Of a stretch of 64,000 bases of DNA, positions 1 to 57,172 are shown piece after piece (positions within the stretch are counted from its first letter, which is position 1; the number at the start of each line of letters is the position of its first letter). Location of the stretch: IMG/VR virus record IMGVR_UViG_3300017989_000002; one strand, given 5' to 3'. The notes below the pieces were generated by a model, which saw only the letters and a program-made list of their open reading frames with translations, made no database searches and had not been told where the DNA came from. The DNA comes from a virus. A program made the translations under genes and the position numbers.

Positions 1-509
1 CAGGTCTTCAGGTGCCCGTCATACCAGCCGGAGGACGGAACTCCGCCTTCGTGACCCTGCCGGTCGCCGGCGTGATCTCGCGGTCCTGTGCCGTGAACAC
101 GCCCTTCACGATGACGAGCGGAACGGTGCGGACCCACCCGTCCTCCCCTCGGTCGACGGACTCGGGGAACAGGACCAGCGTGTACGCCTGGTCCGCCAGC
201 CCGCCTTGGTCCACCAGGGCGTTCTCCTTCAGGGCGAGCGACCGCGCTGCCGCTGCGGGAGTCTTGCTCGTGACCTGGAGGGCGGTGACCGGCAGCACCT
301 TCTTGGCCTTGCCGGCCCACGCCGCCGTCGACAGGTCGAGCCCCCGGGCTGACCCCCTCAGCTGGAGGACCGGCTTGCCGTCCTTCAGGTCCGGCACCGA
401 CATGTAGATGACGTGCGCCGAGAGCGCGCGCAGCTTGCTGCAGACCGACACGAACACCACGAACCACCTCCCGGAACCCGTCGCATAAGAGCCTGACGAG
501 GAGACCTTC

Positions 510-48100: not shown

Positions 48101-48244
48101 AGTCACGCCCCCGGTCCTTCCGTCGAGGCGACCTGCTCACGACACCTCGCCCTCCAGTTCTGCCCGCCTCCAGGCCCCGTCGCTCACGCGGCGGGGCCTT
48201 CCGCGTTGACGGCCTTCTTCGGTAGAAGGGCGGGCCGTTTCGAC

Positions 48245-48282: not shown

Positions 48283-50433
48283 ATGACCACCGAGCCTGTC
48301 CCCCACTGCACGCACCCCGAGCACGCCGACCACCCCGTCCACGACCGGCACCGCATCGAGGAGCGCGCGCGCATCAAGCGCGACAACTTCGCCTACCTGT
48401 ACGGACGCTCCCTCACGGGACGCATCCAGACCGCCCACCCCAACCCCGACGCGCGCCCCGGCGTCGACACCGGTCGCTTCCGGGACCACGAGCCGGAGAT
48501 GCAGCGCATCCCCCGTCCCTTGAGCCCCGAGGCACAGGAAGTCCTCGACCAGTGGAAGCGCGCCTTCCCGGGCGTCGACCGCTTCGGCAACGGCTCGAAG
48601 TCGAACTTCCCCCGGCGCGAGGACTTCGACAACGACGAGGACTTCGAGAAGTACGGCGAGGTCTTCGTCGGCATCGACTACGGGCAGAGCGAGATGCGGG
48701 TGCTGAGCTCCTTCGGCACCCCGCAGGACGTCCTCAAGCGCATGGACCGAGGCGAGCCCCTCTCCCGCATCCTCTTCGTCGACCACGGCCGTGCGGTCGA
48801 GATGGCGAAGAAGTTCGAGGAGGGGGCCAACCCCGCTGCGGTGTCGGAGTTCATGCGGCAGCACTTCCCCGACAACGTGCCACCCGACACCCAGGGCGCT
48901 CCCTACACCTTCGGCAAGCCGGCGCCTGCTGGCGAGATCAAGATGCTGTCGATGGGCGCACACGTGCCGGGTCCTCCACCCTGCTCCATCTGCGCGGCAG
49001 ACGCCGACCCGCCCACCTGCGAGCACATGACCGTGCCCGAGGGCTCGGAGCCGCTCGCCTCGGACGCGTGGCCTCCCTACGACGGCATGTGGATTCAGGA
49101 CGCTCCCGCGCACCAGCCTGACTACAGCCGTGACCTCTTCGCCATCAGCCACGACGCCGAGGGGCAGTTCCTCGACGCCGCCCGGCTGAAGAACGTGCAC
49201 CACTCCGACAAGGACCTGGACCGCTCGCGGCGGGTCTACGAGAAGCTGAAGGCGTACGCGCTGAAGCACGACCTGCCCGCGATCGTGCCGATGAGCTTCG
49301 TCCACGACGAGGTGGTGGTCGACGTGCCCAAGGGACACGAGGACGCCGTCGGCGAGATCTTGGCGGAGAACGCCTTCAGCGACGACCAGAAGGCGGTCAT
49401 CGAAGCCCTCAAGGCCGGGGAGATCAGCTTCCCAGAGGTCATGCTGCCCGTGTCCTGGGAGCGGCGTCCCTGGCTGAAGGAGCTCTACCAGCAGCCCTTC
49501 CGTCCGAGGGACGTCTTCATCCCCCCGTTCTCTCGCGGCAAGAGCACGCGCCTCGCCGCCGAGATGCTCCACGCCATGATGTACGACACACCCCTGGAGG
49601 CCCTCGTGAGCCCGAACGACAACCCTCACAGCGACCTGCCGCTGTACAAGAAGCCCGAGACGGACACCTTCGTGCCGCACTTCGGTCGCGAGAAGTCGGT
49701 GGCCGAGCGCATCGCCGAGGCGGACACCACGCCCACGAATTGGTTCTGCCACGCGTGCGAGGCGTCAGACGAGATCCCGTCGGACGACCCCGACATCAAG
49801 ACGTGCCCTGCCTGTGAGTCCGAGGACGTGACGGTCTACTCGCTCGACAAGGAGCACGGCGTCGGACGGTGGCAGCGCAAGCCCATCGCGGCCAGCTACC
49901 GCCGCGGCCTGTCCGCGACGCCGATGCGCGAGGACGCGCCCAGGGATCCGCGCGACACGCTGGCCTTCATCACCGGCTCGACGTCGTCGATGAAGACCAG
50001 CGTGCTGCAGGACCTGGCCAAGACGGCGGCCGTCCCCCGCTGGTGGTGCCGGAACTGCGACGCGAGTGGCTCCGACCGTGAAGAGCTGATGCGGAGCAAG
50101 CAGGGCGAGGACATCTTCCACTGCCCTGAGTGCAGCAGCGGTGAGGTCTCGTACCACCCCGGACTCAAGACGCGCGCCGAGCACCTCGTCCAAGTCGGCC
50201 TCTACGCGAAGTCAGAGGAGGCAGAGCAGGCCTCGCTGTTCGTCGAGATCACCCGCCTGGGGCCGGAGGGTCTCATGAAGGCCTTGCGCAACGTCGGCAC
50301 CGAGCCTTCCTGCGGAGCCTGCATGGCGGTGTTCTTCACCGGCACGAACCTCCACCCCCACACCTGCGACAACCCGCCGGTGGGCCTCGACTTCGAGACG
50401 ATGCCCACCGACCCAGGCGTCGGGGAGGAGTAG
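48283..50433 (+). CDS. Mosaic protein with PolA-like, helicase-like and Zn-ribbon motif fragments
   Basis: TGRF...PEMQRIPR, IDYGQSEMRVL, VHDEVV, GLSATP, CxxC pairs. Confidence 0.7.
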   Translation: MTTEPVPHCTHPEHADHPVHDRHRIEERARIKRDNFAYLYGRSLTGRIQTAHPNPDARPGVDTGRFRDHEPEMQRIPRPLSPEAQEVLDQWKRAFPGVDRFGNGSKSNFPRREDFDNDEDFEKYGEVFVGIDYGQSEMRVLSSFGTPQDVLKRMDRGEPLSRILFVDHGRAVEMAKKFEEGANPAAVSEFMRQHFPDNVPPDTQGAPYTFGKPAPAGEIKMLSMGAHVPGPPPCSICAADADPPTCEHMTVPEGSEPLASDAWPPYDGMWIQDAPAHQPDYSRDLFAISHDAEGQFLDAARLKNVHHSDKDLDRSRRVYEKLKAYALKHDLPAIVPMSFVHDEVVVDVPKGHEDAVGEILAENAFSDDQKAVIEALKAGEISFPEVMLPVSWERRPWLKELYQQPFRPRDVFIPPFSRGKSTRLAAEMLHAMMYDTPLEALVSPNDNPHSDLPLYKKPETDTFVPHFGREKSVAERIAEADTTPTNWFCHACEASDEIPSDDPDIKTCPACESEDVTVYSLDKEHGVGRWQRKPIAASYRRGLSATPMREDAPRDPRDTLAFITGSTSSMKTSVLQDLAKTAAVPRWWCRNCDASGSDREELMRSKQGEDIFHCPECSSGEVSYHPGLKTRAEHLVQVGLYAKSEEAEQASLFVEITRLGPEGLMKALRNVGTEPSCGACMAVFFTGTNLHPHTCDNPPVGLDFETMPTDPGVGEE

Positions 50434-52257
50434 ATGGCCGACTTCACCGTGATGTGGTCCTACCGGGACCGCCCCATGCTGGAGGATCTCGGCGCACCAA
50501 AGACCATCCCCATGCACCTGATGCTCGAACGCGAGCAGCGGGTGAAGCGGAACCACCAGCAGACGGTGGCTCGGCTTCAGCAGAGGGGCGGCCTGTCGGT
50601 GCGCGAGCTCGTGGCCGTCTTCGAGGACACCAGCGTCTTCGTGGATGGCCGCAGCATCCTTCGCCTATCCCTGTCCGCCGCCGTCGCGCGGCTGAAGGCT
50701 GCGCTCGCCGCAGCCGAGGAGACCTGATGCCCTACATGCCCAAGTTCCGGGAGACCGTGCCCCGCACCGACCTCCCACCGAAGGAGAAGCTCGACGACGA
50801 CCGGGGGTGGGAGGACACCCGCTACCGGTGGAACGACGAGGGTCACTGCAGCAGGGAGGCGTGCACGAGCCCCCACGACAACCGCATCCACCAGCACAGC
50901 GGCCTGGCGTACTGCGCCCGGTGCCAGGACCTCGTGAACCGCATGAACCCCGAGGTGCCCTCCCTCATCCAGACCATGCTGCCCGACGGCACGATGGAGG
51001 ACATGTGAACAGGCACCAGCGCTGGGTCCTGCACTCCGCCTACCCCGACGGAGGGTGGCGAGGCATCGAGAAGTGCATGGGCGACAACGACGGCAACCTC
51101 CTCCTCTTCGACACGGAGGAGGACGCGGCCGACCACGCACGGCGCAGCGGGTCGACGACCTACTTCTCGCCCCGGGAGGTGGAGCTCCGCACCCCGTCCG
51201 TCTGGGACAAGGACGACGACGATGACGAGCCGTCGATCCGGGGGCAGGCAGCTTCTGCCTTCGTGCGAACCTGGTTCCAGGTGAGCCGGCGGTACCGCAC
51301 GGTGGCCTGCCTGCCCCCGGGCACGACCGGTATCGAAGCCCTCGCGCGCGCGGCGCTGGAGGCCGGTGCGTGAACCCTGCGGCCCGTCGTCCCCTCGTGG
51401 GGCGGCGGGCTCGCGTCCTCCCCCCATCTTCACCCCGAGGAAGACGATGAACGACCCCCTGACCTTGGCTGACTGGCGCGCTGCCGTCGCCGGCGGCGAG
51501 ACCACCTCCAGCTTCGCCAACTGGCTGACCGTGCAGAGCCGCGGGCCCACACGCAACCACGTGTTCTCCACGACCCCCGTCCACGACCACTTCGGGCTGT
51601 CCTACGCCCACTACCACGTGGTCGAGCGCAGCATCCTGCAGTCCATGCCCGAGGCGTGGCAGCGCGCCTGGGTGTCCCTCACCCTGCAGCTCGAGGCGAT
51701 GTGCGAGCAGGTCAGCCTCTCGCGGCCCGCAGGCTACTGCGTCACGGCGCAGGACGAGGAGGGCATCACCCACCCCAACGAGCTGCAGGACTACCAGCGA
51801 GGGCGGCGAGACGTGCTGCGGGATCCGGTGGCCAACTGGAAGACGTTGGCCCAGGCCGAGTCCCAGGACGACGCCCTCAACAACGCCACCCTGGACGCCG
51901 GCGCGCGCCTGGAGGAGCGGCTGCTCCGTGAGCTCACCGCCGAAGAGCGGTTCGCGCTCAACGATCTGCTCACCGGCTTCCTGCAGGGAGACCTCGGGGA
52001 TGTCCCGGACGACGACGACGACGAAGGGGGTGCCTGATGGGCGTCATGAGCTGCAGCCGCCGTGCCTGCGAGAACATCATGTGCGACAGGTACTCCGGCG
52101 CATTCGGGTACATCTGCGACGAGTGCTACGCCGAGCTGTGCTCCCTGGGCATCATCGACATCGGCACCTTCATGGAGACCGTGCGCGGTCCCCGCGCGGT
52201 CCCCGAGGCCGTGGCCGCCTACTACGACAAGATCTTCCCCACCGACCCGGAGACATC

Positions 52258-53034
52258 ATGACGAGCGACGAGAACACGAAGGTTGAGGTGACCCCCACGG
52301 GGTCCGCGACGCTGGATGACCTGCTGGGCATCGGCGGCTGGCCGCGAGGCCGCGTGGCGGAGATCTACGGGCCCGAGAAGGCGGGCAAGACGACTCTGGC
52401 CCTGCATGCTGTCGCCGAGGTGCAGGCGCGCGGAGGCACGGCCGCCTTCGTCGATGCCGGGCATGAGCTCGATGTGGCGTACGCGACCACGCTGGGTGTC
52501 GACGTCGACCAGATGCTGGTGAGTCAGCCCGACTCCGCGGAGCAGGCGCTGGAGGTCGCCGAGGCGCTGTCCAGGTCCGGCGCCGTCGACCTGGTGGTCG
52601 TCGACCACGTGGCCGGCCTTGTGCCTCAGGCAGACCTCGAGGCCCAGCAGCAGGATGCGCTCCTGGGCCTGCATGCCCGGCTGATGTCCCAGGCGCTGCG
52701 CAAGCTCACCGCGGTCGCCCACCGCACCGGCGTGACCGTCATCTTCATCAACCCGACTCGCCAGAAGGTCGGCACGGTGTTCGGCAACGGCGAGACCACT
52801 CCGGGTGGCAACGCGCTCAAGTTCTACGCCTCCGTCCGGCTGGATGTCCGGCGTGTGGGTGCGATCACCCGAGAGGGCAAGCAGGCGGGTGCCCTCGTCC
52901 GCCTGAAGGTGGTGAAGAACAAGCTGGCCGTGCCCTTCCGGAGCGCGAAGGTCGATCTCCTCCACGGCAAGGGCTTCCGCGACATCGAGGTCGAGGAAGC
53001 AGATGCCGGGGGCGCACGTGTGGACCCGCAGTGA
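52258..53034 (+). CDS. recA: Truncated RecA homologue with altered catalytic residues
   Basis: [44 protein letters not shown]. Confidence 0.9.
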
Positions 53035-53969: not shown

Positions 53970-54183
53970 ACCCTCGGCACGCTTCTTCGCTTCCTTCATG
54001 GCGTAGTAGGCGGCGCGCATGTGGCTGTTCTCCTCGCGCACCAGCTCGAGGTCGGCCAGCGCCTTCTGCAGCAGGGCGGCCGTGTCCGGTGCTCCCGGAC
54101 GGTTCTTCACCCTCCAGGCCAGCCGCCGCAGGGCCCTCTGCACTCGATCGATACGAGGGCACGTGGCTCCGGGAGGCTTCACG

Positions 54184-54744
54184 CTACAGCTTCTCGCTGC
54201 CCCGACCAGCGGCCCGCCTGCGGAACATGGCCGAGCTGGGCTTCTCGCCCCGGACCGCCGCGTTCCGGTTGCGGATGAGGCGGCTGCGCTGGTTCACGCG
54301 ACGAGGGCTGTTGGCGCCGGCGAGCTCGGCCTTGACCCGGGCCGGGTTCTTGGAGCCTGCCGCAGCCTGACGGCGGCGGACTTCGGAGATGGCGCCGGTG
54401 ATGCCTCCCACGCCGAGAGCCGCGGCGGCGCCCATCGCAGCGGCTTTGCCCTTGCTGGGTGGGCGCGAAGGGATGCCCATGCGGACGCTGTGGTGGTGGA
54501 TGTCTGCATCGTTCGCGAAGCTGCCCAGCGTGGCCAAGGCACCGGCGGCTCCGCCGGCGGCTCCTCCCACGCGCGCTCCGCGGCTCTTGTCCTTGCCCCG
54601 GGCCTCCATGTACTGGCGCTGCATGTTCTCGCGCTCGCCCGGCGACAGGGTGCGGTCCTTCTTCGCCGAGCGACGCATGCGCTCGTAGGGAGAGAAGGGG
54701 CCTGCGATCTTCTCCATCTCGGTGACGAACGCGTCGTGCAGCAT
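54184..54744 (-). CDS. Basic glycine-zipper protein with N-terminal DAFV.EMEK.A motif
   Basis: GGAGG RBS; MLHDAFVTEMEKIA; two Gly/Ala-rich hydrophobic segments. Confidence 0.75.
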   Translation of the reverse strand: MLHDAFVTEMEKIAGPFSPYERMRRSAKKDRTLSPGERENMQRQYMEARGKDKSRGARVGGAAGGAAGALATLGSFANDADIHHHSVRMGIPSRPPSKGKAAAMGAAAALGVGGITGAISEVRRRQAAAGSKNPARVKAELAGANSPRRVNQRSRLIRNRNAAVRGEKPSSAMFRRRAAGRGSEKL

Positions 54745-54793
54745 GGGGACCTCCGTGGACGGGAGCATACTGCTTCCAGATCTAGGATGCGAG

Positions 54794-54866
54794 TGGTCGG
54801 GGCCGGAGTCGAACCGACGACACCTGGTGTTTCAAGCCAGTGCTCTACCAACTGAGCTACCCAACC
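54794..54866 (-). tRNA. tRNA-Phe(GAA)
   Basis: GGTTGGG/CCCGACC acceptor, GCTC/GAGC D-stem, TT-GAA-AC loop, GGTTCGACTCC. Confidence 0.9.
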
Positions 54867-54870
54867 GGTG

Positions 54871-54947
54871 TGGCGGGACAGGGGGGACTCGAACCCCACT
54901 CGCAGTCGGATTTGGAATCCGCCCGGCTGATACCCCAGCTCTCTCCC
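54871..54947 (-). tRNA. tRNA-Trp(CCA), atypical D-arm, encoded CCA
   Basis: CGGA-TT CCA AA-TCCG anticodon arm, GGTTCGAGTCC, G73 plus CCA. Confidence 0.8.
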
Positions 54948-54953
54948 GGTGAG

Positions 54954-55034
54954 TGGGAGGAGTGGGGGTCGAACCCACCATGCCGAACGGCAGCCGGTTT
55001 ACAGCCAGCTTGGTCACCCCGACGCGTCCCTCCC
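54954..55034 (-). tRNA. tRNA-Tyr(GTA), long variable arm
   Basis: GGGAGGG/TCCTCCC-A, GCTGG-CT GTA AA-CCGGC, TGCCG/CGGCA variable stem. Confidence 0.9.
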
Positions 55035-55077
55035 AGAACGACGAAGCCCTCGGAGCTGGTGCGCCGAGGGCTTCATC
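55035..55077 (-). terminator. Putative attenuator terminator hairpin
   Basis: GATGAAGCCCTCGG/CCGAGGGCTTCGTC 14-bp stem then GTTCT, directly before tRNA-Tyr. Confidence 0.7.
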
Positions 55078-55098
55078 AAGGAGAGGTGCTGTCTCTCG

Positions 55099-55179
55099 TC
55101 AGGATGCCGGCGCAGTGCTCCGAGGGCAGCCAAACCAATAGGTGGCGGCGAGGAGGTTGCGCTGGCGGGTGCTGTTCAT
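55099..55179 (-). CDS. Leader peptide MNSTRQRNLLAATYWFGCPRSTAPAS (26 aa)
   Basis: ATG at the predicted +1; consecutive TAT TGG TTT match the three downstream tRNAs. Confidence 0.8.
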   Translation of the reverse strand: MNSTRQRNLLAATYWFGCPRSTAPAS

Positions 55180-55185
55180 GCCGAG

Positions 55186-55214
55186 ACCCTACTCACGCGG
55201 CGCGCGGGCGTCAA
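55186..55214 (-). promoter_or_regulatory. sigma70-type promoter TTGACG-N17-TAGGGT
   Basis: Near-consensus -35/-10 with 17-nt spacer; ATG follows 6 nt after the -10. Confidence 0.8.
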
Positions 55215-55232
55215 GGGGAAGTAGTTGAGAGA

Positions 55233-55308
55233 TGGTTGCGGGGAGCGGACTTGAACCGCCGACCTGCGGATTATGAGTCCGCCGCTCTACCAGCTGAGCT
55301 ACCCCGCG
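55233..55308 (-). tRNA. tRNA-Met(CAT), initiator-like acceptor stem, encoded CCA
   Basis: CGCGGGG/CCCCGCA-A-CCA with C1:A72 mismatch; CT-CAT-AA loop. Confidence 0.9.
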
Positions 55309-55321
55309 ACAGGGTGTGAGA

Positions 55322-55395
55322 TCCGGACGGGTGGTCTCGAACCACCGACCCCCTGCTCCCAAGGCAGGTGCGCTACCAGACTGCGCTACGCCCGG
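55322..55395 (-). tRNA. tRNA-Pro(TGG)
   Basis: CCGGGCG/CGTCCGG-A, GCGC/GCGC D-stem, CCTGC-CT TGG GA-GCAGG. Confidence 0.9.
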
Positions 55396-55421
55396 TCGAA
55401 GACCGCGGGCGCAGCTCGACG

Positions 55422-55493
55422 CTACGCCCGCTTGGTCGGTCGGGGCGTGTGAACCGGCATTCGGTTCAGCTGGAGTCGGGAGAGGTCGATCAT
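55422..55493 (-). CDS. Leader peptide MIDLSRLQLNRMPVHTPRPTKRA (23 aa)
   Basis: ATG at the predicted +1; internal ATG CCG (Met-Pro) plus two more Pro, upstream of tRNA-Pro/Met. Confidence 0.7.
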   Translation of the reverse strand: MIDLSRLQLNRMPVHTPRPTKRA

Positions 55494-55500
55494 GGCCCGC

Positions 55501-55529
55501 ACCCTACTCTCGCCCGGAGGCCGCCGCAA
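55501..55529 (-). promoter_or_regulatory. sigma70-type promoter TTGCGG-N17-TAGGGT
   Basis: Same GAGTAGGGT -10 context as the 55186 promoter; ATG 7 nt downstream. Confidence 0.75.
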
Positions 55530-55540
55530 GCTGTTCGCGC

Positions 55541-56098
55541 TCACGAAGGCGAGCCGCTTGCTCCTGACGGGTCTGGGCGGATGCCGTCTTCTTCACGGCC
55601 TGGTGCTTGTGTGGCTTGCAGAGCAAGCACCCGGCACGGGCACTCTTCGGCCGACCTCGCTTGTGGTTCATCGGGAGCCTCCGGAGCGAAGATAGACCGG
55701 GCGACGCGTCCGAGCCAGCGGCTCGCTTCCTTCGTGAACAGCCCCGCGAGAACCCCTGCGGCCGGGTAGCCCCAGGCGTTGTCGGCGTCGGCGCCCATCC
55801 CCGCCAAGAGGATGAGGCCCACCGCGAGCGCCAAGACTGCGGACTCGACGGGGTGGAGCAGGTACCACGCCGCCCAGCTGTCTTGGAAGGTGCGCGAGCC
55901 CAGCTTTGCGCCGAAGCTCGACATCGCGTGGTAGACGCCCCCCAGCATCCCGGCTGCCGCCGTGGCCGCGAGCGTAGCGTCGGGGACGCCTGCCAGAAGG
56001 CCCTCGAGGGACAGGTACAGCACGCCGCCGGCGAGCAGCAGCTGCCCTGCCAGGACGGCGAGCAGCGAGTAGATCCGGTACCAGCTGACCTGGTTCAC
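55541..56098 (-). CDS. Multi-pass membrane protein
   Basis: Four hydrophobic helices; GMLGG, WYLLHP, AGLF. Confidence 0.7.
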   Translation of the reverse strand: MNQVSWYRIYSLLAVLAGQLLLAGGVLYLSLEGLLAGVPDATLAATAAAGMLGGVYHAMSSFGAKLGSRTFQDSWAAWYLLHPVESAVLALAVGLILLAGMGADADNAWGYPAAGVLAGLFTKEASRWLGRVARSIFAPEAPDEPQARSAEECPCRVLALQATQAPGREEDGIRPDPSGASGSPS

Positions 56099-56469
56099 GC
56101 CTCTGCGCGGACGCCGGCGAGTGCCTGGAACTCGGACGTGCCCGCGTAGGAAGTCAGGCACTGCGGCGTGCAGCGAGGACATGGGCACGACAGGCCCAGC
56201 GGGCCCGTGTGCTGCGGGTTGGCCCGCTGGAACTGCTCGAACAGGCAGTCCCGGCCTCCCGTCACGAAGGGCGGGATCTGGAATGGCTCGGGCAGAGGCT
56301 CCGTGATGCGCTCGAGCGGGATGGAGGGCCTCAGCTTCTCGATGACCTCCTGCAGCTTCTCGGCATCGAGGGGCGCCTTCGCCTGGAGCTTGGTGCGGAG
56401 GATGCGCGCGCCCTCGGGGGTGAGGTGGCGGTCGTAGAGCAGCTGGTCGATGTCGGCTTCGGTGATCAC
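56095..56469 (-). CDS. Hypothetical Cys-tail protein, paralog of 20271-20552
   Basis: ITEADIDQLL...EGARILR; CPCPRC. Confidence 0.6.
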   Translation of the reverse strand: MITEADIDQLLYDRHLTPEGARILRTKLQAKAPLDAEKLQEVIEKLRPSIPLERITEPLPEPFQIPPFVTGGRDCLFEQFQRANPQHTGPLGLSCPCPRCTPQCLTSYAGTSEFQALAGVRAEA

Positions 56470-56491
56470 GGGACCTCCAGGCACGTCCAGC

Positions 56492-57172
56492 CTACCGGAC
56501 CATCGCCGGGCGGTCCAGTACGCCGATCTCGTCGGGACCCGTCCCGCGCCAGTCGTCGTTGCGCGCGCCGACGCCGGCAGCCATCACGTGCCCGTTGGCC
56601 TGCGCGCCCAGGATGTTGACGGCGTGGTCGGCCCCGAGGCAGTGCAGGAGCTCATGCGCCACCAGTGCCTCGGCATCGAGCGGGGCGTCCTCCATGCCGT
56701 ACTGCCCAGGGTGAGGGCCCGTCAGCGCGATGCGACACCTCGAGGGCGAACCGAAGGCGAACTGGGGGTCAGCGACGGCGCGCGCATCGGGTCCGGCGGC
56801 CTGCACGGCAGCGTCGTCGGTGACGAACACGAGCCACCCACGAGGGGTGGGGATGCCGAGGGAGGCGCAAGGCGCAGCCTCTGCCTCGGGCACGTACTCG
56901 ACGTTGTGACCCGCTTCGATGACCTCGGCCGCGGCGTACAGAACGAGCGGACGGGCCCAGTCGGATGTCCCGCACTGCGTGACCCGGAGCGTGTTCGGGC
57001 TGGGGGCCTCGTAGCCGGGCAGGCCGGGCACGTAGGGCGGGTAGGCGTGCAGGATGATGAGGAGCGTGATGACCACGAGGGAGAAGGCTCCGCCCACGCT
57101 CCCGAGGATGATGTTGCGGGTCTTGACGTCCACGTAGGGCCTCCCAGAACGCGAGAAGGACCCCCGAAGCAT
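56492..57172 (-). CDS. Membrane-anchored metzincin/matrixin-like Zn metalloprotease
   Basis: HELLHCLGADH (HExxHxxGxxH) plus HVM Met-turn; N-terminal TM; start codon uncertain. Confidence 0.75.
   Translation of the reverse strand: MLRGSFSRSGRPYVDVKTRNIILGSVGGAFSLVVITLLIILHAYPPYVPGLPGYEAPSPNTLRVTQCGTSDWARPLVLYAAAEVIEAGHNVEYVPEAEAAPCASLGIPTPRGWLVFVTDDAAVQAAGPDARAVADPQFAFGSPSRCRIALTGPHPGQYGMEDAPLDAEALVAHELLHCLGADHAVNILGAQANGHVMAAGVGARNDDWRGTGPDEIGVLDRPAMVR

Follow-up and report, generated by a model that had tools for sequence, protein, structure and literature searches.

Why phages carry tRNA genes, and how these genes are controlled, has been debated for decades. The question is raised here by a cluster of five tRNA genes in the IMG/VR virus record IMGVR_UViG_3300017989_000002: are such genes simply expressed, or does the phage supply tRNAs according to demand? 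The cluster was analysed within a stretch of 64,000 nucleotides, which is called the window and whose coordinates are used throughout unless a G000 position is given. The window is the minus strand of G000:C1:92110-156109, in a viral record of 174,678 bp with direct terminal repeats and 67.8% G+C. The locus spans positions 54,794 to 55,529. Its genes are grouped as Pro plus a tRNA with the CAU anticodon (cassette 1), then Tyr plus Trp plus Phe (cassette 2), and each group lies behind a promoter-like site and a short open reading frame (ORF). An earlier note on this DNA had proposed that both cassettes sense the loss of charged tRNAs. We hold with moderate confidence that the Tyr-Trp-Phe unit is a ribosome-mediated (trp-type) transcription attenuator, which would measure the decoding of the codons that its own tRNAs read. 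The folding models indicate that the phage probably makes its Tyr, Trp and Phe tRNAs only when the decoding of those codons is slow. A published description of leader-peptide control of phage tRNA genes was not found in literature searches.

Results

The Tyr-Trp-Phe leader and its codons

Cassette 2 lies on the minus strand and begins with the promoter-like site P2 (55186-55214), in which TTGACG (55214-55209) is followed, after a 17-nt spacer, by GAGTAGGGT (55194-55186). The start codon ATG 55179 stands 6 nt after the TAGGGT of this -10 element. It opens leader ORF 2 (55099-55179), which has 26 codons and a TGA stop, has the predicted translation MNSTRQRNLLAATYWFGCPRSTAPAS and ends 64 nt before tRNA-Tyr. 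Codons 14 to 16, TAT TGG TTT (Tyr14, Trp15 and Phe16; 55132-55140), occur in the order of the downstream tRNAs and are the candidate regulatory codons. The tripeptide YWF was counted only 3 times in 349,352 six-frame residues, which corresponds to p ~2e-4 per 26-aa ORF, and to 7e-4 when any order of the three residues is accepted. For both Tyr and Phe the leader takes the rare codon. The phage uses TAT 6 times versus 930 times for TAC, and TTT 9 times versus 1057 times for TTC; TAT and TTT are its rarest Tyr and Phe codons, each below 1% of the synonymous family. Read by wobble, they would make sensitive sensors. TAT and TTT are also expected in non-coding DNA, so their rarity cuts both ways.

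The three tRNA genes follow on the same strand. tRNA-Tyr (anticodon GTA, 54953-55034) has a long variable arm and was called by ARAGORN, and tRNA-Phe (GAA, 54793-54866) was found by both ARAGORN and Rfam (62.8 bits). The gene between them is tRNA-Trp-like (54872-54947), with a CCA anticodon and an encoded CCA end. It was missed by ARAGORN at default settings and called at -ps80 only, with acceptor mismatches, and does not reach the threshold for a canonical cloverleaf. Its Rfam match was to tRNA-Sec at 24.5 bits, below the gathering score.

RNA folding of the Tyr-Trp-Phe leader

The 147-nt leader RNA of cassette 2 is far more stable than its shuffles (z = -5.6), and three elements of it are predicted to compete for pairing. 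Region 1 (transcript nt 14-28; 55152-55166, minus strand) is the putative anti-antiterminator. Region 2, the candidate antiterminator strand, lies within the ORF (nt 53-74; 55106-55127, minus strand) and has two alternative partners: region 1, and the top plus the 3' arm of the third element. This third element is a terminator-like hairpin of 38 nt (nt 103-140; 55040-55077, minus strand; -30.1 kcal/mol), which is followed by GUUCU and ends 5 nt before tRNA-Tyr. In the free RNA, nt 14-28 fold onto nt 59-74 as a long 1:2 hairpin, with the Tyr-Trp-Phe codons near its top, and the terminator at nt 103-140 forms as well. For the alternative pairing, nt 53-63 (GCCCUCGGAGC) are 100% complementary over 11 nt to the 3' arm of the terminator, and nt 65-71 add a 7-bp extension complementary to the end of its 5' arm. 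The energy of the duplex of region 2 with the terminator was -42.5, versus -29.4 +/- 3.5 in shuffles, and one of 500 dinucleotide shuffles was as good.

The effect of a ribosome was modelled by blocking the covered nucleotides and computing the terminator probability, with three footprints. The probability was 0.996 without a ribosome, at most 0.03 with the leading edge at or before nt 53, and at least 0.99 from nt 55 onward. The antiterminator won with the A site at Tyr14 for all three footprints, at Trp15 for two and at Phe16 for one. In the model, the three codons are the last ones toward the 3' side at which a ribosome still leaves the antiterminator free. Tyr14 becomes borderline if the model permits pairing around the ribosome, which we consider sterically unlikely. 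Three-state switching appeared in none of 500 shuffles of this leader. In snapshots of folding during transcription, stalling at each of the three codons gave the antiterminator stem by 122 nt, ahead of the 3' arm of the terminator. A consensus terminator scan made no call at the hairpin of cassette 2. The search of Rfam leader and T-box families in 54000-56500 returned only tRNA-clan and chance-level matches (E up to 1), and a T-box or other Rfam element was rejected as a candidate for the locus.

From this anatomy and these statistics we infer a promoter, a leaderless start, translation, termination and a physiological trigger for cassette 2. Transcription would begin at or beside the A of ATG 55179, from the TTGACG-17-TAGGGT promoter, and a ribosome would read the 26-codon leader. 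If the RNA is untranslated, or if the ribosome has passed codon 16, the folding models have nt 53-74 either under the ribosome or in a duplex with nt 14-28; the hairpin of nt 103-140 would then form just before tRNA-Tyr and halt RNA polymerase. A ribosome waiting at TAT14, TGG15 or TTT16 would instead hold nt 14-28 off and leave nt 53-74 free. These nucleotides would pair with the top and the 3' arm of the hairpin, and the polymerase would continue into tRNA-Tyr, tRNA-Trp, tRNA-Phe and the next gene.

Promoter-like sites and start codons

Cassette 1 is preceded by a site of the same kind, P1 (55501-55529, minus strand), with TTGCGG at 55529-55524, a 17-nt spacer and GAGTAGGGT at 55509-55501; its presumed promoter function is based on this arrangement. 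The start codon of its leader, ATG 55493, comes 7 nt after the -10 element. The 9-mer GAGTAGGGT has two copies only, both at this locus, in the window (0.19 expected) as well as in the whole genome. The shared -10 element with a 17-nt spacer in each cassette, as described in the earlier note, was thus confirmed, and so were leader lengths of 23 and 26 aa on the minus strand. The same note had claimed leaderless starts. The ATG at 6-7 nt from the -10 element agrees with this in both units, and promoters with leaderless starts are plausible at both from the sequence, the start itself being deduced from this spacing. It had also described the promoters as of sigma70 type and unlike a motif found elsewhere. 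TTGACG or TTGCGG and TAGGGT hexamers are indeed present at 17-nt spacing, yet they score below the E. coli-consensus threshold; the same -10 hexamer and spacing precede a tRNA leader of phage phiCbK. The contrasting motif is real: CGCATAAG occurs 9 times versus 0.25 expected, 8 of the copies being on the plus strand (starts 482, 8022, 19765, 19803, 24294, 24569, 30131, 43350 and 48245), which fits a phage-specific promoter motif.

A scan of the rest of the genome for promoter-ORF sites had been proposed as a check. The pattern TTGNNN-16..18-TANNNT-5..8-ATG occurs 4 times genome-wide, and P1 and P2 are two of these sites. A third, outside the window, is TTGCGT-17-TAGACT-7-ATG at G000:C1:80400-80545 (plus strand), which opens a 29-codon ORF, MVAGTAPLAIYGGFDAWRRSRDQAREARR. 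In an ATGA overlap, the stop of this ORF runs into the start codon of the following gene, for which a separate GGGAGG site is present; coupling of the ORF, as a leaderless uORF, to that gene is possible. As another tRNA unit this site (G000 80452) was rejected, since its ORF overlaps the start of the next gene and is not tRNA-related.

P1 is also touched by a basic 55-aa ORF (MNHKRGRPKSARAGCLLCKPHKH..., 55504-55671, minus strand), which has a GGAGG site of its own and whose stop codon is the TAG within the -10 element of P1. This ORF overlaps, in another frame, the low-complexity tail of a 185/215-aa membrane-protein ORF. GC3 does not decide which of the two is the coding frame, and Pfam gave no match for the 55-aa ORF.

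The Pro/CAU unit

Cassette 1 shares the front end of cassette 2, namely the promoter-like site, its distance from the ATG and a hairpin that stops 5 nt short of the first tRNA, but sensing is not supported for it. Leader ORF 1 (55422-55493, minus strand) has 23 codons and a TAG stop (MIDLSRLQLNRMPVHTPRPTKRA). A small hairpin carries Met12-Pro13 in its loop, and Pro17 and Pro19 are near the 3' end of the ORF. The leader folds well (z -4.8). Hairpin 1 (55405-55431, minus strand; -23.8 kcal/mol) has an 11-bp stem, GCGGGCGUAGC/GCUGCGCCCGC, and can be extended to 55437-55401, in which case 5 nt separate the stem from tRNA-Pro. The UAG stop of the leader (nt 70-72) is inside the 5' arm of this hairpin (nt 63-73). 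In the ribosome model, stalls at codons 2-17, including Met12 and Pro13, left hairpin 1 at 0.998. It was removed only by a ribosome at about codons 20-24 or the stop codon; an A site at codons 21-24 abolished it, and the terminator probability was 0.5-0.8 with the ribosome stalled at Pro19. The one candidate antiterminator in leader 1, a 6-bp option, was never chosen by the model and was rejected. Of the 434 short ORFs of the genome, 51 (12%) contain MP or PM internally, and the Met-Pro match of this leader is therefore at chance level.

The layout of an ORF running into a terminator, as in occlusion-type (pyrBI-like) attenuators, is found in cassette 1. Because of this layout, slow translation would lower read-through rather than raise it. 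Cassette 1 may use an occlusion-type coupling, or it may have a plain structured leader.

Its tRNA-Pro (anticodon TGG, 55322-55395, minus strand) was found by ARAGORN and by Rfam (62.9 bits). An exact 11-nt direct repeat, CGGGCGTAGCG (minus strand), is present at 55384-55394, which are bases 2-12 of tRNA-Pro, and at 55420-55430 in the 5' arm of hairpin 1. Because CGGGCGTAGCG is repeated in both, the 3' arm of hairpin 1 could pair with the 5' strand of tRNA-Pro. The repeat could be functional or a duplication scar.

The second gene of the unit, the tRNA with anticodon CAT (55233-55308, minus strand; called by ARAGORN, and by Rfam with 67.4 bits), has an encoded CCA and an acceptor stem with a C1:A72 mismatch (CGCGGGG...CCCCGCA-A-CCA). 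This mismatch is a hallmark of bacterial initiator tRNA, the other traits being three G:C pairs in the anticodon stem and A11:U24. In the Rfam alignment two of the three initiator G:C pairs are seen (A31:U39 stands in place of the third), and the 11:24 pair is C:G, as in elongators. The gene may thus encode an initiator, an elongator Met or an Ile2 tRNA, its acceptor stem resembling that of an initiator and its D stem that of an elongator. As an initiator, it would read the start codon and not Met12.

These results qualify the central claims of the earlier note. It had stated that all five tRNAs are matched by leader codons. The Tyr-Trp-Phe match is beyond chance (p ~2e-4), while the Met-Pro match is at chance level, the CAU tRNA is initiator-like and the Trp gene is non-canonical. 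Codon sensing is supported for the Tyr-Trp-Phe unit by its predicted terminator, antiterminator and anti-antiterminator set. It is not supported for the Pro/Met unit, where no alternative structure was found, the codon match is at chance level and a modelled stall at Met12 or Pro13 leaves the hairpin unchanged. The independence of the two cassettes is not supported either, because transcripts from P1 would run into cassette 2. No hairpin was found between the CAU tRNA and P2, nor between tRNA-Phe and the next gene.

A parallel unit in phiCbK-like phages

The phage phiCbK (JX100813) carries a tRNA block Phe-Val-Ile-Ile-Val-Gln-Gln that is preceded by TTGACA-17-TAGGGT-7-ATG. The ATG opens a leader ORF of 32 codons, MSKTYRQFVRQIQVVRNIRAGRSRMADEGFRD, which is followed by a depositor-annotated terminator. 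In the ribosome model, antitermination required the A site to be within codons 12-16 (Ile Gln Val Val Arg), and the Ile, Gln and Val codons of this sensitive window match tRNAs of the block. Six relatives with 66-83% nucleotide identity (Rogue, BL10, Kikimora, CcrPW, CcrSC and Colossus) keep this ORF open, with a length of 31-32 codons. Four of the phages have a tRNA-Asn in the block, and in three of these the leader has more Asn codons (2-3); in the sole one with tRNA-Tyr, Tyr codons rise to 2; the overall codon-tRNA fit is imperfect. The phiCbK genome paper is silent on leaders or attenuation (PMC3556154).

The present locus therefore has in common with these Caulobacter/Brevundimonas phages (Dolichocephalovirinae) the TTGAC(A/G)-17-TAGGGT site, an ATG 6-7 nt on, a leader of ~30 codons, a terminator (here a terminator-like hairpin) and then tRNAs. 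Leader codons match the tRNAs behind in both cases, and the modelled phiCbK window at codons 12-16 is a further likeness. On the other hand, the leaders have no sequence similarity and this phage has no detectable kinship to them. The phiCbK units also have good U-tracts and multivalent leaders for 4-5 amino acids, whereas only three codons are found here for five tRNAs.

Two further features were observed in JX100813. Depositor-annotated rho-independent terminators stand before three tRNA sub-blocks (48120-48166, 49745-49769 and 51465-51502), and two of them directly precede the first tRNA. The ORF MTHLLTRYEREATGLDTTTA before the Glu/Asp tRNAs echoes those tRNAs, as does the 45-aa gp083, which has many Ser, Leu, Pro and Lys residues and precedes Pro-Pro-Lys-Lys-Leu-Leu-Leu-Ser-Ser tRNAs.

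Genomic setting and relatives

In the whole genome, tRNA genes were found by ARAGORN at this locus only, and all five lie on the minus strand of the window. The cluster is inside a short minus-strand gene island, with products of 213, 124 and 185 aa upstream and genes for 186 aa and 75 aa downstream. A phage-wide blastn search against 50,697 phage records gave matches to the tRNA bodies only. tblastn with the 725-aa polymerase-like protein gave no match, no related loci were found in IMG/VR with this protein or the neighbouring 194-aa protein as queries, and a scan with the tRNA-Trp arm as an exact pattern gave no match. The downstream gene has a single homologue in the protein database, 53% identical, on a 2.3-kb contig that lacks both tRNAs and synteny. 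Other copies of the locus, reached through the protein database, are all 99.9% identical with one SNP, in tRNA-Pro, and are uninformative.

The phage RecA was taken as a clue to the host; its best matches are bacterial RecAs with 64-74% identity from mixed phyla. This RecA (52258-53034, plus strand) has just 258 aa, while the matching bacterial RecAs have ~335-345 aa and an extra Pfam domain, PF21096, that is missing from the phage protein.

Two genes before the tRNA cluster, the 213-aa product (56492-57133, minus strand) combines a hydrophobic segment at its N terminus with the HExxH motif AHELLHCLGADH, which suggests a membrane-anchored zinc protease; Pfam gave no match for the longer 416-aa ORF that contains it. 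The gene directly after tRNA-Phe (54184-54744, minus strand) begins with MLHDAFVTEMEKIAG. A stretch of ~50 nt that includes the motif has a second copy, 88% identical, in the genome (G000:C1:133478-133526), and the sole distant homologue found for this gene sits among genes with similar xxDMEKVA leaders.

Discussion

The modelled behaviour of cassette 2 is that of the classical attenuators (E. coli trpL, pheL, hisL, and pheM of pheST). They share a short promoter-proximal ORF with clustered regulatory codons and three overlapping pairings (1:2, antiterminator and terminator). Termination would be the default if the leader is not translated, and also if its translation is unhindered, whereas a stall on the regulatory codons would give read-through. 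In pheM of pheST, as in cassette 2, control is exerted on a part of the translation machinery that serves the same amino acid. The differences are clear as well. Cassette 2 would control tRNA genes, so that the molecules that it senses would also be its products. It has one codon for each of three amino acids and not a run of one, and its ORF begins at the predicted 5' end of the transcript, with no Shine-Dalgarno leader. Its antiterminator pairs mainly with the top and the 3' arm of the terminator, the tail is U-poor and no Rfam leader family matches.

For leaderless sensors a precedent exists in mycobacteria, where leaderless polycysteine short ORFs are Cys-responsive attenuators (bioRxiv 10.1101/834739; background PMC4633059). 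As is proposed here, a leaderless short first cistron ties downstream expression there to the supply of an amino acid by its codon content. The mycobacterial ORFs, however, control cysteine-metabolism operons in a cellular genome, whereas the targets here are phage tRNA genes with an explicit terminator/antiterminator pair, and the host need not be an actinobacterium. T-box riboswitches are also transcription attenuators that respond to the charging of a specific tRNA. They bind the tRNA directly, without translation, and control aminoacyl-tRNA synthetase and amino-acid genes rather than tRNA genes; the locus has no T-box motif. A Phe-codon leader of the E. coli pheU/pheV tRNA genes was considered as a possible parallel and rejected, as those leaders are 3-4 nt (PMC7049720). 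Overall, we rate cassette 2 as a known mechanism, attenuation with leaderless precedents in mycobacteria, on a new class of target, the tRNA genes.

Several points weigh against the attenuator reading of cassette 2. An E. coli-consensus promoter scan found no promoter at the locus, and efficient leaderless translation in the host is an assumption. The cloverleaf of tRNA-Trp is degenerate. The tail GUUCU is U-poor, although nearly all strong hairpins in this genome are without U-tracts. In the equilibrium model Phe16, and Trp15 at the longest footprint, fall just beyond the permissive window, and a stall at any of codons 3-15 also antiterminates. Searches found no diverged relatives of the locus that could show covariation, only copies with 99.9% identity. 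Finally, cassette 1, with its similar front end, fails the structural and statistical tests of an attenuator.

A rival explanation is that of constitutive tRNA promoters with structured 5' leaders. The hairpins would then serve in processing or stability, assist RNase P or act as leaky terminators for the operon upstream, and the ORFs and their codons would be fortuitous. The U-poor tails agree with this, as do the gene callers, which called neither leader ORF, and cassette 1, which shows a hairpin and nothing more. TAT and TTT would be at home in non-coding, less GC-rich sequence, and the 11-nt copy of the tRNA-Pro 5' end in leader 1 could be a scar of duplication. However, this explanation must treat as coincidence the YWF order of the tRNAs, the ATG at the expected start distance twice, the 11+7-bp complement between ORF and hairpin, the three-state behaviour and the position of the codons at the switch boundary. 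The phiCbK-like phages also keep an ORF of the same design open. We regard constitutive expression as unlikely. A slightly smaller probability is given to the model of the earlier note, in which both cassettes are independent codon-specific sensors (Met12/Pro13 and Tyr-Trp-Phe), each inducing its own replacement tRNAs after loss to a defence nuclease. The common promoter 9-mer, spacing, leaderless geometry, ORF length and hairpin position speak for it, and Pro17 and Pro19 are near enough to hairpin 1 for a stalled ribosome to cover part of its 5' arm. Phage tRNAs are known to counter tRNA-targeting defences (PMC10264068, PMC11555353), and the defence-nuclease scenario would be compatible with this published work; the trigger may also be starvation or generally slow translation. 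In leader 1, however, there is no antiterminator, a stall at Met12/Pro13 leaves the hairpin in place, and MP or PM is common among short ORFs. An initiator-like tRNA would not read an internal ATG, and no terminator separates the cassettes.

The modelled property that a ribosome anywhere at codons 3-14 frees the antiterminator, together with termination when there is no translation, could also point to a general translation-status attenuator. Its leader would report the loading or movement of ribosomes (initiation capacity, any slow codon among 3-15, or coupling to the polymerase) and not the supply of specific tRNAs. The stop codon of cassette 1 within the hairpin arm fits a pyrBI-type coupling sensor of this sort. 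Such an attenuator leaves unexplained why three residues of the rarest class stand in tRNA order, in rare codons, at the last permissive positions, and why the Ile, Gln and Val codons of the phiCbK window match its tRNAs. We consider it the least probable of these alternatives. The codon-reading attenuator of cassette 2 remains the reading that we prefer.

A broader proposal is that codon-barcoded attenuators exist in phages as modules. Each would have a leaderless mini-ORF that uses the codons of the tRNAs behind it and would detect the loss of particular charged tRNAs, for example to a host anticodon nuclease, and would induce only the matching replacements. Two tandem modules would be present here, and the design would have arisen or spread across unrelated phage lineages. 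This generalisation is speculative, and we think it possible but doubtful.

If the attenuator reading of cassette 2 is true, tRNA supply in this phage would be a closed feedback loop, with an attenuator keyed to the codons that are read by the tRNAs it controls. tRNA genes would then join amino-acid operons as targets of leader-peptide attenuation. The combination of a leaderless ORF with a hairpin and with anticodons that match would offer a simple annotation signature for phage tRNA clusters. The debate between codon compensation and counter-defence as the role of phage tRNAs would become directly testable.

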